Of a stretch of 7,098 bases of DNA, positions 2,771 through 7,098 are shown piece after piece; the stretch's first letter is position 1; each line of letters opens with the position of its first letter. A program made the translations under genes and the position numbers. Origin of the DNA: a virus (lineage: Duplodnaviria > Heunggongvirae > Uroviricota > Caudoviricetes); IMG/VR virus record IMGVR_UViG_2606217102_000007; one strand, 5' to 3'. Under the pieces are notes generated by a model. It did not search any database and was not told the DNA's origin. It saw only the letters and a list, made by a program, of their open reading frames with translations.

Positions 2771-4134
2771 TAATCACCCCATAGTGAAGAAAAGTTACTG
2801 CCGGCTGCTGGCTGTGATACCTGTGTAGGTTGAGATTGCTGCCGCTGAGATTTACCAACATTAACGTTATATTGTTGGTTGTAATTGTCGGTATATTGCT
2901 GAATGTCGCGCATTGATTGTTGCAGTGCTTCAGGGCTTGAGAAATCAACCTGTGGCATACCTTGAAAATACATCTTTGCTTCTGCAACGGTGTTGATACC
3001 GGATGCCCCCATGTCTCTGGCTGCTGCAATGCCCTGATTCTGCATCTTTCCTTGGATTCGCTGTGCAGCGTTGTATAGTTTCCTCTGATCACCACCAGAT
3101 GCACGGCTACGAATATCTGCACCAAGAGCAGGAGAACCTGAAGAGCCTGTAATGCCAGTCATGAAGCCAAGATCGTCAATTGATGCACCAGAAATTGCAT
3201 CAAGATCTTTCTTCATTGCGTAATTCTGCGCGCTTGCTGCCGATGTAGCCGGAGCGGCAATAGAGCCAGCAGGAACGCGAACCATATTCCCCTCGTTGTC
3301 GATACCTTCGTAGAACGCATTAGCCCCAGCGCCGTGAAGCTTCCCGCCTACCGTTACAGTTCTGCCATCTGCTAACTGAACTGTACGCTCATTATTCCCA
3401 ACCGACCCTTTCATTGATGCTCTCTGCATCGATAAATCCTGACCGCGCATCGTGATATTCTGACCGCGTGCTGTTAGCGCCTCTCCAGCCTTATTGCTGC
3501 GGATTGTCTCTGCCAGTCTGCCTCGGTCAATCTCACGACCAGCTATCTTGTCCTGAACAGCAAACGCCTTTTCTGGCCCAAGTGCACCGAGAGACATAGT
3601 AGTCAGCATGTGTGATAGCTGTTCTGGATTCTGGATACCTGTCTGAATCATCCAGTCAGCATTCGCACCCACGCGATTTAACCTGTCCTTGTTGTCAGTA
3701 ATGAATTTACTGTAGGCTTCCGGTCCCTGAGAAAGAGCGACGTTAGCCCTCATGGCTAAATCGCCCATATCGTTGCGTTGCTGCTCATTAAGACCGGAAA
3801 ACGCCTGTTGTGCCTGTGCAACAAACGCTGGATTTTCCTGGGCAAACTTAAATAGTCCCGATGGATCACCAGAAGCCCATGCATCAGCGTGAACCTTATT
3901 GAACGCCCTAATAGCTTTCTGTTGCTGTTCCTGATTGTAAATATCAGCAACTCCAGCCAGACCACGTAACGCGGTCAGACCAACGTTATTTGCACCTGAT
4001 CGAGCCAATTCATTGTTTTCGCGGATCAGACCAAGCGTTGCGTTAATGTCGCTTGCCTTTGGCGCATTCTCATTTTGCGTACCGATGCCAGCCAGAAAAC
4101 CACCAGAATTAATACCCTGTTGCCACGTAGCCAT
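2770..4134 (-). CDS. Phage DNA-ejection (DNA transfer) protein, P22 gp20-like, 454 aa
   Basis: Long intact ORF between the gp7-like and gp16-like genes; the size matches P22 gp20 (about 471 aa). The complement of 4139-4146 gives an AAGGGG ribosome-binding site upstream of the ATG. Gly/Ala/Gln-rich with a Q/N-rich C-terminus. Assignment is by gene order and size, not by sequence search. Confidence 0.55.
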
Positions 4135-4143
4135 GATTACCCC

Positions 4144-4545
4144 TTAAAACAACGAGCCAAGCAGACCAAGACCGCCACCAACAGCGGCACCAATACCAGT
4201 ACCAATACCAGGAACAATGCTGCCAAGTTTTGCTCCAGCAATTGCTCCAGAGGCAGCCCCGCCTATTGCAGATTGAAGGCCGGAAGGTCTATTAGCGTTT
4301 GCCGCCGCCAGTGCCGCGCTTTGCTGTGAAATCTGGCTCATGTTGTTGGCATATGTTTGCCCGGCATTTGCCTGCCCCTGAAGCGCGCCAAGACCAATAT
4401 TTGCCAGATTCTGGTAGTTGTTCATTTGTCCAGATAGCCATTGCTGACCAAGCGTTGGTGCGATTGTTGCTAACTGATTACTGGTTGAGGTGGAACCCAA
4501 TCCACCTGTTGCTTCCGCTGCCGCCAGACTCTGATATTCGCTGAC
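4144..4545 (-). pseudogene. 5'-truncated P22 gp7-like ejection protein gene (C-terminal ~130 codons native; the ORF-track N-terminal ~50 codons are read-through into unrelated DNA)
   Basis: The ORF-track protein (4144-4695) opens with an aberrant W/C/H-rich stretch (MAWWMASSSALWRVPLNGISRLGSNPITFPSSTIVLTSRSFHHCHGTGC), then switches to A/G/Q/N-rich sequence ending in a Gly-zipper-like hydrophobic tail. Those first ~150 nt are antisense to a plus-strand exonuclease-like frame. Confidence 0.5.
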
Positions 4546-4732
4546 AGGGCAGCCAGTTCCATGGCAGTGGTGGAATGACCGCGACGTAAGAACAATCGTC
4601 GAGCTTGGAAAGGTAATAGGATTCGACCCTAAGCGAGATATGCCATTCAAAGGAACTCGCCACAACGCGCTTGATGATGCCATCCACCAAGCCAAATACG
4701 TTTCAGCAATCTGGAAAAAATTAGCTAAATAA
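4535..4732 (+). pseudogene. 3' fragment of a DEDDh-family 3'-5' exonuclease gene (final ~65 codons including the Exo III-like motif)
   Basis: Plus frame open from 4535 (in-frame TGA at 4532-4534) to TAA at 4730-4732: ...WNDRDVRTIVELGKVIGFDPKRDMPFKGTRHNALDDAIHQAKYVSAIWKKLAK. H-N-A-L-D-D-A resembles the Exo III motif (H-x-A-x-x-D-A) of DnaQ-like exonucleases. No N-terminal Exo I/II region is present, and the next gene's RBS and ATG follow 16 nt later. Confidence 0.45.
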
Positions 4733-4737
4733 TCAAC

Positions 4738-4742
4738 AGGAG
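4738..4742 (+). promoter_or_regulatory. Ribosome-binding site (AGGAG) for the 4749 CDS
   Basis: caacAGGAGaaaaacATG, 6-nt spacer to the ATG at 4749. Confidence 0.6.
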
Positions 4743-4748
4743 AAAAAC

Positions 4749-5042
4749 ATGCCAGCGCCTTTGTATGGTGCGGATGACCCGCGCCGCTGTTCCGGCAAAT
4801 CAGTATCGGAGGTGCTGGATAAATTCAGAAAAAACTACGACCTGATAATGTCGCTACCGCAGGAAACGAAAAAGGAAAAGGAATTTCGCCACTGTATATG
4901 GCTTGCAGAGAAAGAAGAACGCGAGCGAATTTACCAGACATCAATCCGACCATTCCGTAAAGCCACATATACCCACTTCCCTGAAATTGACCCGCGCCTG
5001 CGTAATTACCGCTCACGCTATGGCGCTATCAGTAATGACTGA
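4749..5042 (+). CDS. Hypothetical prophage early-region protein, 97 aa, highly charged
   Basis: ATG preceded by an AGGAG RBS; the stop at 5040-5042 lies inside the next gene's RBS (tGAGGAa), indicating operon organisation. No family recognised. Confidence 0.6.
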
Positions 5043-5052
5043 GGAATTTACC

Positions 5053-5217
5053 ATGAGAGGACTTGCATACAATCCCGGCATTCTTCCGGCAGAAATGATT
5101 ATTCGCCAACGCGTAAAGCCAATGCCATCGAGAGAGGAATTGCTTAAGAGAAATTCTTTTCCATCAGTGAATCAAAACAAATATCTGAATGCAATGTGGC
5201 GGAGTTGGAAGAAATGA
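5053..5217 (+). CDS. Hypothetical small basic protein, 54 aa ([54 protein letters not shown])
   Basis: ATG at 5053 with a GAGGAA RBS 6 nt upstream. The ORF track extends the same frame back to 4903, but that would overlap the 97-aa gene; the internal start with an RBS is preferred. Its stop overlaps the next start as ATGA. Confidence 0.4.
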
Positions 5218-5645
5218 AACAAATGTCACTAATTGAGATGGATGGATTTCTGAAAGGTAAATGCATCCCACGAGATTTAAAGGTTAACGAAACAAACGCT
5301 GAATATCTGGTGCGTAAATTTGCTGAAGCGGAGGCCAAGTGCGCGGCGCTGGCAGCGGAGAATGCGGGGATGAAGTCTGGCGCTATGGACGAAATCAAGG
5401 TTATCAACCGTGGAGGGCAGGCATATTGTGTAAAAGATGGAGTGCAAGTTAATCCCATGTATGCAAGAGGGTGGAATGACTATCGCGCAAAGTCTATGCA
5501 ATCAGACACCCCAGCCACCGATGCTTTTCTGGCTGAAGTACGAGCGCAAGGCGTGGAGATGTTTGCGGAGTGTGCATACACACTTGAACATCATGATCAC
5601 GCAGTAGCTTTTGCCGCCGAGCTGCGCAAAGGAGGCAACCAGTGA
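5214..5645 (+). CDS. Hypothetical prophage protein, 143 aa from ATG 5214 (ORF track gives a GTG start at 5196); contains four Cys and an EHHDH cluster
   Basis: ATGA overlap with the upstream stop; GGAG 9 nt upstream of ATG 5214. Its stop (5643-5645) overlaps the next gene's GTG start as GTGA. No family confidently recognised. Confidence 0.6.
5632..5637 (+). promoter_or_regulatory. Ribosome-binding site (AGGAGG) for the 5642 CDS
   Basis: aaAGGAGGcaaccaGTG; strong Shine-Dalgarno sequence 4 nt upstream of the GTG start. Confidence 0.6.
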
Positions 5646-6394
5646 GCAAGATTGACTATCAGGCACTGCGTGAGGCGGCAGAAAAAGCAACGTGTGGCGA
5701 GTGGTCGCTCGAATATGGAGAGGGCCGATTTGATGGTGATGATGCACTAATTCATCGCGAGGCTGCTGGATATATTCCCATTTGCAGAATTGAAGGAGCG
5801 CATCCTGAAAGCGGTTTCGATGAAGATTTCCAAATGGAACAGCAGGCCAATGCTGAATTCATCGCCGCAGCCAATCCGGCTACCGTCTTGGCGCTGCTGG
5901 ATGAGCTGGAAAGAAACCAGCAATACATAAAACGCCTCGACCAGGAGAACGAGGATATTGCGCTAACGGTAGGGAAGCTGCGCGTTGAGCTGGAAGGCAA
6001 AGACAGCAAAATAGCCAATCTTACCGCCGAACGCGATGCTCTTCGTGAAGGTGAGATGGGCGACGCTAGGCATAGCAACACACGGGCCGCAGCTGATATC
6101 TACTTCCAACTGGTCGAGGAGTGCGAAATTCCTGCTGGCGGATCTCTGGTCGAGTACGTTGACGATATGCGCGAGAAGCTGGAAGCCGCAGAGAAGCGCA
6201 TTGCAGAGTTAGAAAGTGGTTCTCAGGCACAAAAGTTAGTTGAAGCAATCATTGTTGCGATAGAAAACGAACAGGAAAGGCTTTTTGATGAAGATTACCT
6301 AATGGATTCGAAAGAATGCATTGACGTAATTCGTGAAGAAGTAAAGCGATGGAATGATTCCCGTGCCGCTGGCATTCGCATCAAAGGAGAGTGA
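5642..6394 (+). CDS. Ead/Ea22-like prophage early protein, 250 aa, acidic with a central coiled coil
   Basis: GTG start with a strong AGGAGG RBS. The N-terminus [21 protein letters not shown] and the AANPATVLALLDELERNQQYIKRLDQENEDIALTVGKLRVELEGKDSKIANLTAERDALREGEM heptad-like region resemble Ead/Ea22-family proteins of lambdoid prophages, as recalled from memory and not searched. Confidence 0.5.
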   Translation: MSKIDYQALREAAEKATCGEWSLEYGEGRFDGDDALIHREAAGYIPICRIEGAHPESGFDEDFQMEQQANAEFIAAANPATVLALLDELERNQQYIKRLDQENEDIALTVGKLRVELEGKDSKIANLTAERDALREGEMGDARHSNTRAAADIYFQLVEECEIPAGGSLVEYVDDMREKLEAAEKRIAELESGSQAQKLVEAIIVAIENEQERLFDEDYLMDSKECIDVIREEVKRWNDSRAAGIRIKGE

Positions 6395-6395
6395 G

Positions 6396-7098
6396 ATGAT
6401 TCACTATCACGGTGGGCCTATTACTCCGGATACGTGCGCCATGAGAGCATGGAAAGGGCGACATGCGTTTATCAGTTTTGCGCATTCAGGCCAGATCAAT
6501 CTCGCGGCTGAATACTGTCAGTCGTTCGCGCTGGACAACGGTGCATTCACCGCCTGGAAAGCAGCTGGCAAAAACAAAATCGACTGGAGCGATTACTACG
6601 AGTTTGTTGCTCGCTGGAAGAATCACCCAGGATTCGATTTTGCCATTATCCCGGATGTTATTGATGGCGGAGAGGAGAAAAATGATGCGCTTCTGAATGA
6701 GTGGCCTCACGGAAAACTAGCTGGCGTTCCAGTGTGGCACATGAATGAAAGTGACGAGCGATTTATTCATTTGTGCAATGAGTTTCCGCGAGTGGCTATC
6801 GGTAGTTGTGGCGACTATGACGTAAAGCGCCCAACTCTTGCGGTAGCCAGAATGAAAGACCTGATTCGTCACATTGTTGATGAGCATGGTCAGCCGGTTA
6901 CGAAACTACATGGATTGCGCATGTTAAATCCGCAGATATTCACAAAATTACCCTTAGCCAGCGCAGATAGTACGAACGTCGCTCGAAACATCGGTATTGA
7001 TAAAGCCTGGTCTGGGGCTTATGCACCTGCAAGTAAAGAGACACGCGCAGCATTAATGGTAGAACGGATTGAGGCACACAATAGCCCTGGTTCTCTTG
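6396..7098 (+). CDS. TGT-superfamily protein, candidate DpdA-like 7-deazaguanine DNA transglycosylase (first 234 codons; continues past window end)
   Basis: ATG at 6396 with AGGAG 6 nt upstream, open to the window end, so absent from the ORF track. Motif order and spacing parallel bacterial Tgt: LDNGAF (D47, 6534-6536) vs TDSGGF; AIIPDVIDGG vs IVMIFDEC; RVAIGSCGD vs YAVGGLAVGE; KLHGLRMLNP vs YLMGVGKP; ADSTNVARNIG (D191, 6966-6968) vs FDCVMPTRNARNG, the nucleophile-Asp motif. No Zn-binding CxCxxC is seen in the portion present. Confidence 0.55.
   Translation, partial: MIHYHGGPITPDTCAMRAWKGRHAFISFAHSGQINLAAEYCQSFALDNGAFTAWKAAGKNKIDWSDYYEFVARWKNHPGFDFAIIPDVIDGGEEKNDALLNEWPHGKLAGVPVWHMNESDERFIHLCNEFPRVAIGSCGDYDVKRPTLAVARMKDLIRHIVDEHGQPVTKLHGLRMLNPQIFTKLPLASADSTNVARNIGIDKAWSGAYAPASKETRAALMVERIEAHNSPGSL

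Follow-up and report, generated by a model that had tools for sequence, protein, structure and literature searches.

The ea22 gene is non-essential (PMC10695390); when it is deleted, lytic growth proceeds faster and lysogens are fewer (PMC7093339). This pro-lysogenic phenotype was measured with the lambda and Phi24B proteins, whose C-terminal domains (CTDs) are unrelated to the CTD described below. An acidic CTD is present in every Ea22 (PMC10834534; Goddard 2024), and a C-terminal K/RGE ending has been described as an Ea22 feature (Dydecka 2020). The Ea22 proteins of lambda and P27 are tetramers with dimeric acidic CTDs, the tetramer being that of the full-length protein in lambda (PMC10834534). 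Phi24B-type Ea22 proteins have "two additional regions flanking the coiled coil" (PMC8614690). No Ea22 is known to have a binding partner, two-hybrid screens having found none (PMC10834534, PMC7093339), and the description of the family in an earlier note on the present DNA as widespread yet functionally obscure agrees with these two studies.

The window analyzed here is a stretch of 7,098 nucleotides (IMG/VR record IMGVR_UViG_2606217102_000007). An Ead/Ea22-family coding sequence occupies positions 5642 to 6394 on the plus strand, with a GTG start, a TGA stop, and 250 codons for amino acids (ORF list, PF13935, phrog_250, and RefSeq). The earlier note had proposed this ORF, its Ead/Ea22 identity, its strong acidity, and an N-terminal CGEW segment, all of which were confirmed. 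The product has 58 D+E versus 30 K+R residues, a net charge of -28, and a pI of 4.46, and CGEW lies at residues 18 to 21. The Pfam Ead_Ea22 model (PF13935; InterPro IPR025153) matched with 116.7 bits against a gathering cutoff of 27 bits, and its full length (positions 1 to 139 of 139) aligned to residues 2 to 191. Matches were also obtained with phrog_250 (E = 8e-67) and, by BLASTP, with lambda Ea22 (E = 5e-24). A chance ORF is ruled out by the E value of the PF13935 match (1.5e-33), by at least 8,000 homologous protein clusters, and by a start and Shine-Dalgarno sequence kept in 70+ loci. An identical protein (100%) is deposited in RefSeq as WP_032202076.1 under the name "ead/Ea22-like family protein." The protein terminates in ...AGIRIKGE, and residues 191 to 250 contain 15 D/E versus 9 K/R by hand count. 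NCBIfam gave no match for the protein or its neighbors, a PDB sequence search with the protein gave only a chance match to YbaB (E = 0.28), and an Rfam search of the window gave none. Judged by sequence, the ORF is a genuine, intact long-form Ead/Ea22 member of the Phi24B/HK620-HkaG type. The gene is ordinary, and its family is already known and annotated in public genomes; since this phage gene family is very common, the identification as such matters little.

From the N to the C terminus, the long layout consists of an N-terminal helix, a globular insert, a coiled-coil core, an extra helical segment, a KRIAELE hinge, the acidic CTD, and the K/RGE tail. The N-terminal helix IDYQALREAAEKAT (5651 to 5692, plus strand; residues 4 to 17) is common to lambda Ea22 in the alignment and was predicted at residues 6 to 17 by AF2, with low confidence. 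The N-terminal insert cassette (5693 to 5857, plus strand; residues 18 to 72), which contains CGEW and IEGAHPESGFDEDF, is largely missing in lambda Ea22, where the alignment has a gap. At least nine alternative cassettes use this slot, and the present one, N1, was found in combination with eight CTD classes. The central coiled-coil helix (5876 to 6052, plus strand; residues 79 to 137) comprises the linker NPATVLALLDE and the core ERNQQYIKR.DQENEDIALTVGKLRVELE, and residues 82 to 118 match the coiled-coil core of lambda Ea22 almost residue for residue. This near-identity suggests that the protein shares the oligomeric state of lambda Ea22. The heptad-like center pointed out in the earlier note, a stretch beginning at residue 85, was borne out, with the register unbroken over approximately residues 71 to 133, a second heptad block at residues 168 to 196, and a best coiled-coil window scoring above 99.4% of shuffles. 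The full-length AF2 model, built from a shallow alignment, had a pLDDT of 46 and was judged unfit for a fold search, so its secondary structure alone was used: a 59-residue helix at residues 79 to 137 and further helices at 146 to 160 and 169 to 191. The second extra segment (6065 to 6190, plus strand; residues 142 to 183) is likewise an alignment gap in lambda Ea22, and together with the N-terminal insert it makes up the Phi24B-type pair around the coiled coil. The KRIAELE hinge (6194 to 6214, plus strand; residues 185 to 191) is a recombination linker beyond which relatives diverge completely. CTDs switch right after it, and short forms fuse LLDELE directly to AAKKRIAELE.

Lambda Ea22 (P03756) thus has the same Pfam family, N-terminal helix, and nearly the same coiled-coil core, and it also shares the hinge (as KRIA.LES), the AGIRIKGE tail, the 24-nt DNA junction encoding that tail, and an operon position between recombination genes and xis/int. 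It differs in lacking most of residues 22 to 72 and all of residues 142 to 183 and in its CTD. In HK620 HkaG and the long variants V1 to V3 of Stx phages (Phi24B/933W/P27), the coiled coil likewise has an extra segment on either side (PMC8614690). Over its whole length, HkaG shares 83% identity with the present protein, residues 1 to 190 being practically the same, and its gene lies in the order hkaJ(abc2)-hkaI(DUF2737)-hkaH-hkaG. HkaG and the Stx-phage variants carry another CTD cassette, and V2 has DUF551, whereas the present protein showed no match to that domain (PF04448); DUF551 was found in three relatives (P0100, P0105, and P0112). With P22 EaD, the namesake of "Ead," the protein shares the coiled coil and hinge, residues 84 to 191 being 44 to 47% identical to proteins annotated as EaD in P22-like Salmonella phages. 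However, the EaD-annotated records match over these residues alone and not over the N-terminal module, and they are absent from the 14 phage records that carry the present CTD.

The C-terminal mini-domain (6224 to 6367, plus strand; residues 195 to 242) is a predicted acidic helix-loop-helix hairpin whose conserved core is IENEQERLFDEDYLMDSKECIDVIREE. Modeled by AF2 with a diverse alignment, it gave a helical hairpin with a pLDDT of 89.2. The lambda CTD is an alpha/beta dimer (PDB 8DSX, beta-beta-alpha-beta-beta-alpha; PMC10834534); the two CTDs do not align and have no sequence or fold similarity, and two relatives (P0108 and P0118) combine the scaffold of the present protein with a CTD of the lambda type. 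The hairpin, approximately 45 amino acids long, was present in 106 representative clusters, and no Pfam or PHROG model covers it. A tblastn search with the CTD returned only 14 phage records, among which HK620, lambda, and Stx phages were absent, and the same CTD (~97% identity) was found on N-terminal modules only 43 to 57% identical to that of the present protein. The same mini-domain, at 55 to 70% identity, occurs in EaA/DUF551-type proteins (N terminus MTTITKEQ...ARIALASLEAEP; mini-domain consensus IAAIEKEQDRLfgEDYLMDSKDCIDVIREE), whose genes (classes D1 and D6) are frequently found immediately after Ea22 genes. In these proteins, it is usually internal, after a PAPVVPD linker and before DUF551, pyrophosphohydrolase, or other domains, and the Ea22 N-terminal and coiled-coil scaffold is lacking. 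The CTD is distinct from the four published classes and is shared with EaA/DUF551-type proteins. A Foldseek search with the confident CTD model returned nothing at an E value of <4 in PDB and nothing at an E value of <1 in BFVD plus PDB. A helical hairpin is too generic a fold to point to a function. As an unmodeled unit of at least 100 protein clusters, the hairpin provides a concrete handle for finding partners.

Both ends of the gene lie in short conserved boundaries. The 5' boundary, CAAAGGAGGCAACCA-GTGA-GCAAGATTGACTATCAGGC (5627 to 5664, plus strand), holds a strong AGGAGG Shine-Dalgarno sequence (5630 to 5635) 6 nt before the GTG start (5642 to 5644), which overlaps the upstream stop TGA (5643 to 5645) in the 4-nt GTGA (5642 to 5645). 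The coupling noted earlier is therefore present, and it recurs in 48 of the 52 loci with an abutting upstream ORF. The same ~38 nt stand behind otherwise differing upstream genes, and the upstream proteins terminate in ..RKGGNQ* irrespective of family. The 3' boundary, GGCATTCGCATCAAAGGAGAGTGA-G-ATG (6371 to 6398, plus strand), encodes the tail GIRIKGE* and holds the Shine-Dalgarno sequence of the next gene (AAGGAG, 6384 to 6389), the TGA stop (6392 to 6394), a 1-nt gap, and the next ATG at 6396. Of 79 loci, 47 had the 24-nt junction with no more than one mismatch; 8 CTD classes and at least 12 classes of downstream gene were represented, and lambda has the junction as well. The shared sequence extends only 24 to 34 nt upstream of the Ea22 stop and only 4 to 6 nt downstream of it when the next gene differs. 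A 24-nt DNA boundary with the ribosome-binding site of the next gene is a better reading of the published "K/RGE motif" than a protein motif, and this changes how Ea22 CTDs should be delimited. Cassette classes (9 x 10 x 10) were seen in 33 combinations, and recombination at short linkers of conserved sequence has put the gene together.

The explanation that we favor, with a probability of approximately 0.6, is that the protein is a long Ea22 family member that would serve as an oligomeric coiled-coil scaffold with exchangeable cassettes, of the kind that favors lysogeny in lambda and Phi24B. At this locus, we observed the identity and architecture of the protein, its mosaicism, the junctions, and the genomic context; early expression, the tetramer, and the pro-lysogenic phenotype are taken from the literature. 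Ea22-type genes are accessory and non-essential, and they belong to the early leftward (P_L) operon in lambdoid and P22-like phages, where they are situated between the recombination/anti-RecBCD genes and xis/int. We infer the oligomeric state, binding mechanism, and target as follows. The protein is most likely a parallel coiled-coil scaffold, dimeric or tetrameric, which would display two exchangeable surface cassettes, the N-terminal globular insert and the small acidic C-terminal helical hairpin. Early in infection, it may bind or sequester a protein of the host or the phage, and in lambda and Phi24B the net genetic effect is a delay of lytic growth in favor of lysogeny.

The location agrees with such an operon position, the gene order in Escherichia coli EC0026B being abc2, DUF2737, EaE-like gene, Ea22-like gene ... 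integrase, as in HK620. The anti-RecBCD gene abc2 (PF11043, 211 bits) lies ~600 nt upstream of the Ea22-like gene. The surrounding prophage is a decayed, P22-like remnant in E. coli, located between dacD and sbcB, and it lacks the head, replication, immunity, and P_L regions. Just upstream of abc2, a deletion has brought a truncated gp7 gene up against a fragment of an exonuclease gene, which is a pseudogene, and the window also contains an IS66-family insertion. Since P_L is lost, expression in this prophage is doubtful, and the gene is probably silent cargo here. The chances are about even that it has no function in this genome, being an intact but unexpressed relic kept only through the recency of prophage decay. 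In addition to the losses just listed, no sigma-70-like site was found in positions 4100 to 7098 against 3.6 expected, and strains with this remnant have copies that are 99.9 to 100% identical, which leaves no time for decay. On the other hand, the entire block from abc2 to the integrase retains intact ORFs and coupled starts, and read-through or nonconsensus promoters may exist. The lack of consensus promoters is not proof of silence. A relic status bears on expression in this host alone and is compatible with the scaffold explanation of the protein.

The main rival to the scaffold explanation, clearly less probable, is that Ea22-type proteins are counter-defense effectors, which evolve quickly and inhibit host immune or recombination-surveillance proteins or serve as decoys for them; the acidic coiled coil and its cassettes would bind a defense protein or mimic its substrate, and the "pro-lysogenic" phenotype would be a side effect. 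The gene lies in a recombination-linked anti-defense hotspot near abc2, and the GTGA-coupled upstream ORF is a full-length but mosaic homolog of HK446 gp27, or Oad2, a demonstrated inhibitor of P2 OLD. Oad2 and P22 EaE occupy the same hotspot with the same linker-plus-cassette build, and in 39 of 52 loci (75%), the gene immediately before Ea22 is of the EaE/Oad2 type. According to a preprint (10.64898/2026.07.10.737580), some phages encode fusions of Oad2/EaE with EaD/Ea22 proteins, and phrog_368 and phrog_14548 match both ORFs of the window. Because the Ea22-like protein and the EaE-like ORF showed no similarity in direct comparison, these shared PHROGs represent fusion proteins in other phages and not paralogy. 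Arms-race proteins and DNA mimics typically show such extreme cassette shuffling and strong acidity, and Lar (restriction alleviation) and dATP/dGTP pyrophosphohydrolase proteins are among the carriers of the CTD mini-domain. However, the upstream ORF resembles Oad2 only in the linkers and N terminus, and the left junction is a generic slot, with DUF2737 and other genes bearing the same RKGGNQ* tail, so that the adjacency of Ea22 and Oad2 is weak evidence. The literature ties Ea22 to defense only through the fusion remark in the OLD preprint, with no experiment found. PADLOC matches were weak coiled-coil noise (E = 0.009 to 0.016), and neither PADLOC nor the Oad2/EaE comparison placed the Ea22-like protein among anti-phage defense or anti-defense proteins. 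The likeness to Oad2 implies anti-OLD activity for neither the Ea22-like protein nor the EaE-like ORF. A counter-defense role is cheaply testable, since the gene stands beside an Oad2-type gene in a hotspot encoding anti-immunity proteins.

A related and slightly more tentative possibility is that Ea22 and EaE/Oad2-type genes form a combinatorial cassette system, in which the oligomeric scaffold would bear modules that bind targets and are exchanged through homologous recombination at built-in boundaries of 20 to 35 nt. These boundaries would double as ribosome-binding and stop-start coupling signals, and phages could thereby quickly reassort anti-immunity or host-takeover specificities. The EDYLMDS.DCI.VIRE hairpin would be one widely reused target-binding module, and the "pro-lysogenic" phenotype may be secondary to the neutralization of a host surveillance protein.

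Far less credible is the partnership implied in the earlier note by the tight spacing to the next gene, in which the two proteins would form a complex, for example one that targets or regulates a DNA or tRNA transglycosylase: the neighbor is indeed TGT-like (DpdA-like; phrog_887, "queuine tRNA-ribosyltransferase," E = 9e-99), with its Shine-Dalgarno sequence embedded in the Ea22 stop region, and an Ea22-type tail stands upstream of ~70 of 80 TGT-like genes, but a control with an unrelated 63-amino-acid hkaF-like cassette gave the same tail in ~79 of 80 loci, upon which the pairing was rejected. TGT-like genes follow many different CTD and N-terminal insert classes and were next in only 3 of the 79 loci found with the Ea22 query, the sequence in common beyond the stop amounts to only 4 to 6 nt when the next gene differs, and Ea22 genes precede all the other downstream classes counted above. 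The adjoining TGT-like gene thus reflects a cassette slot and not a partnership, the same 3' junction being found ahead of both TGT-like and hkaF-like cassettes. The idea that the junction serves solely as the ribosome-binding site of the next gene lost weight through lambda, which keeps the same 24 nt followed by GATC and not GATG and whose next annotated gene, ea8.5, lies ~190 nt beyond it.

The Ea22-like gene (5642-6394, + strand) starts with GTG, ends with TGA at 6392-6394, and encodes a protein of 250 amino acids (aa). The protein matched Pfam Ead_Ea22 (PF13935) along the entire model with an E value of 1.5e-33 and 116.7 bits (gathering score, 27), and phrog_250 of PHROGs at 8e-67. At least 8,000 relatives, including the exact sequence, were found among 5.8 billion proteins searched, and nearly all named relatives among the matches listed are labeled "ead/Ea22-like family protein," as is RefSeq WP_032202076.1, which is 100% identical to the gene in complete Escherichia coli genomes. 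Membership of the Ead/Ea22 family is therefore close to certain; the interpretation in the earlier note is supported, and the gene had already been annotated, so the finding is real and rightly read but ordinary and known before. About 20 further PHROGs each match separate segments of the protein only partially, an early sign of mosaicism in the gene.

The sequence features described in that note were likewise recovered. The protein is strongly acidic (58 acidic versus 30 basic residues; net charge, -28; pI 4.46), and CGEW lies near the N terminus at residues 18 to 21. The central heptad-like stretch, which starts at residue 85, belongs to a region of constant register at about residues 71 to 133, followed by a second block at 168 to 196 (simple heptad score), and the best heptad window beats 99.4% of shuffles. 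AlphaFold2 modeling of the whole protein, at low confidence, predicts helices at 79 to 137 (59 residues) and 169 to 191. The GTG start (5642-5644) shares bases with the TGA stop of the upstream ORF (5643-5645) in a GTGA overlap, with a Shine-Dalgarno AGGAGG 6 nt 5' of the start, and a single base separates the stop from the ATG of the downstream TGT-like gene at 6396.

[quoted passage not shown] Lambda Ea22 (182 aa) shares with the Ea22-like protein the N-terminal helix, an almost identical coiled-coil core, the KRIA.LES hinge, and the AGIRIKGE tail, but it lacks most of aa 22 to 72 and all of aa 142 to 183. Among close relatives, aa 1 to 190 are nearly invariant, and complete divergence begins after KRIAELE; some of their CTDs are lambda type (HRYYGIGG loop), some DUF551, and some other. 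The best-supported account, with an overall probability of about 0.6, is that the protein would be a nonessential early accessory protein that oligomerizes via the lambda-identical coiled coil, displays swappable N- and C-terminal cassettes, and acts through binding a host or phage protein, with lysogeny favored as the genetic outcome in lambda and Phi24B. The binding step on its own is more tentative, with roughly one chance in three.

The CTD (aa 189 to 250) was found by tblastn in only 14 phage records, which come from P22-like phages of E. coli and Salmonella and from some large phages (roughly 100 to 140 kb). No lambda or Stx phage was among the 14, so the CTD is not of the lambda type or of the V1, V2, or V3 type (long Ea22 variants of Stx phages). 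Some of these records carry it on N-terminal modules just 43 to 57% identical to that of the Ea22-like protein, which indicates that the CTD is a portable cassette. When aa 191 to 250 were used for an exhaustive phmmer search against 1.84 billion representatives, 106 clusters had an E value of ≤1e-3; many of them are 55 to 70% identical, and some have the match in the interior of proteins as long as 405 aa. Conserved in these clusters is a helical-hairpin mini-domain of about 45 aa (6224-6367, + strand; aa 195 to 242), with the core IAAIEKEQDRL..EDYLMDSKDCIDVIREE and, as numbered in the Ea22-like protein, invariant positions E210, Y219, M221, and C226. Its hosts are often EaA/DUF551-type proteins, with a PAPVVPD linker usually preceding it in the EaA type, and include a few enzyme fusions (dATP/dGTP pyrophosphohydrolase, Lar, and ASCH). 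The confident AlphaFold2 model of the CTD, built from a diverse alignment (pLDDT, 89.2; pTM, 0.70), predicts a helix-loop-helix hairpin with an EDYLMD motif at the turn, clearly unlike the alpha/beta CTD of lambda. Foldseek returned nothing significant in PDB and BFVD, and the fold as modeled gives no clue to function. What is added here is incremental: a CTD cassette outside the four published classes and a mini-domain covered by no Pfam or PHROG model.

Each end of the gene has a short DNA boundary sequence that joins a Shine-Dalgarno sequence to a stop/start coupling and is near-invariant although the cassettes flanking it are unrelated. At the 3' boundary (6371-6398), the last 24 nt of Ea22, GGCATTCGCATCAAAGGAGAGTGA, followed by N-ATG, occur with ≤1 mismatch in 47 of 79 loci, which reach down to 56% protein identity and represent 8 classes of CTD, with genes of at least 12 classes downstream. 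The DNA in common extends 24 to 34 nt upstream of the stop and 4 to 6 nt downstream, no more. K/RGE ends all Ea22 proteins (Dydecka et al., PMC7093339), and the codons for K, G, and E form an AAGGAG Shine-Dalgarno sequence that lies 6 nt upstream of the following ATG. In lambda, the identical 24 nt are retained, yet GATC rather than GATG comes next, which indicates that the junction is not a ribosome-binding site alone. The 5' boundary sequence (5627-5664), CAAAGGAGGCAACCA-GTGA-GCAAGATTGACTATCAGGC, comes after differing upstream genes, each ending in ..RKGGNQ*. The published K/RGE motif and the RKGGNQ tail of upstream genes are translations of DNA boundary sequences, and the two boundaries are those that Clark et al. 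2001 and Susskind and Botstein 1978, cited in PMC3029335, proposed for lambdoid phages under the term "short conserved boundary sequences." When 57 distinct Ea22-type proteins were cut at linker peptides, 9 N-insert, 10 middle, and 10 CTD classes were obtained, in 33 combinations; the N-insert class of the window protein is joined to 8 CTD classes, and its CTD class to 4 N-insert and 4 middle classes. Of 5,426 complete E. coli genomes, 2,466 contain fragments of the gene, and only 34 contain it in the full-length combination.

In E. coli EC0026B and related strains, the match to the window is a degraded P22/HK620-like prophage located in the dacD-sbcB interval. P22-type ejection-protein genes (gp16-like, gp20-like [PF16928], and the C-terminal half of gp7) lie on the - strand. 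At a deletion junction (~4536-4748), the truncated gp7 gene, keeping Pfam model positions 101 to 230 only, abuts a 3'-5' exonuclease gene fragment on the other strand. The + strand then carries abc2 (anti-RecBCD, PF11043), a DUF2737 gene (5053-5217; 54 aa; PF10930, 107 bits), a 143-aa EaE-like ORF joined to it by an ATGA overlap, the Ea22-like and TGT-like genes, more small genes, and the integrase. The order agrees with that in HK620, hkaJ(abc2)-hkaI-hkaH-hkaG(Ea22-like). Elsewhere, DUF2737 proteins have an RKGGNQ* tail and directly adjoin Ea22. An IS66-family element (1-1427; - strand ORFs TnpB_IS66, 349-696, and HTH transposase, 696-1346) sits inside the gp16-like DNA-transfer gene; the EC0026B locus, whose match begins at 1428, lacks it but is otherwise 99.9% identical. 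Four terminator-like sites in 4100-7098 are at chance level. The immunity, replication, and early-left promoter region is missing in its entirety from the prophage, including P_L and all sequence upstream of abc2, and neither strand of 4100-7098 has a sigma-70-like promoter site (3.6 ± 2.4 expected from shuffles). It is therefore doubtful that the Ea22-like gene is expressed from this remnant, and the chances are about even that the gene is unexpressed cargo in the present genome, which is compatible with the accessory-protein account.

The EaE-like ORF (5214-5645, + strand) has no Pfam or NCBIfam match but is a full-length mosaic homologue of HK446 gp27 (BLASTP E value, 2e-37). In a July 2026 preprint (10.64898/2026.07.10.737580), gp27 is named Oad2 and shown to bind the P2 OLD abortive-infection nuclease, which it inhibits; some phages are described there as fusing Oad2/EaE to EaD/Ea22 proteins, and the region is called an anti-defense hotspot. 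Ea22 is directly preceded by an EaE/Oad2-type gene in 39 of 52 loci and has the GTGA overlap in 48 of 52. Oad2 and the ORF share their first 36 aa, two linkers, and the tail LRKGGNQ but differ in the middle cassettes; because the likeness is limited to these parts and a 54%-identical homologue is reported inactive, anti-OLD activity cannot be assumed. The main rival to the accessory-protein account, that Ea22-type proteins would have a counterdefense role, draws on this hotspot context, the Oad2-type neighbor, the fusions described in the preprint, the acidity of the protein, and the shuffling of cassettes, and it is considered rather unlikely.

The TGT-like gene (251 aa, + strand) runs from 6396 past the window end at 7098 and is whole at L002:16968-17723. 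It matches no family but phrog_887, "queuine tRNA-ribosyltransferase" (E value, 9e-99), and nothing in Pfam, NCBIfam, PADLOC, or PDB sequences; RefSeq labels it "hypothetical protein," and the product may be a DNA transglycosylase of the DpdA type. A specific partnership with the Ea22-like protein is very improbable and largely excluded: an Ea22-type tail precedes the TGT-like gene in about 70 of 80 loci, but it precedes the unrelated hkaF-like gene (63 aa) in about 79 of 80, and many different Ea22 cassette combinations precede the TGT-like gene, so the adjacency is a property of the slot. IMG/VR contains the TGT-like gene in at least 488 stretches, where it nearly always occupies the slot behind an Ea22-type tail.
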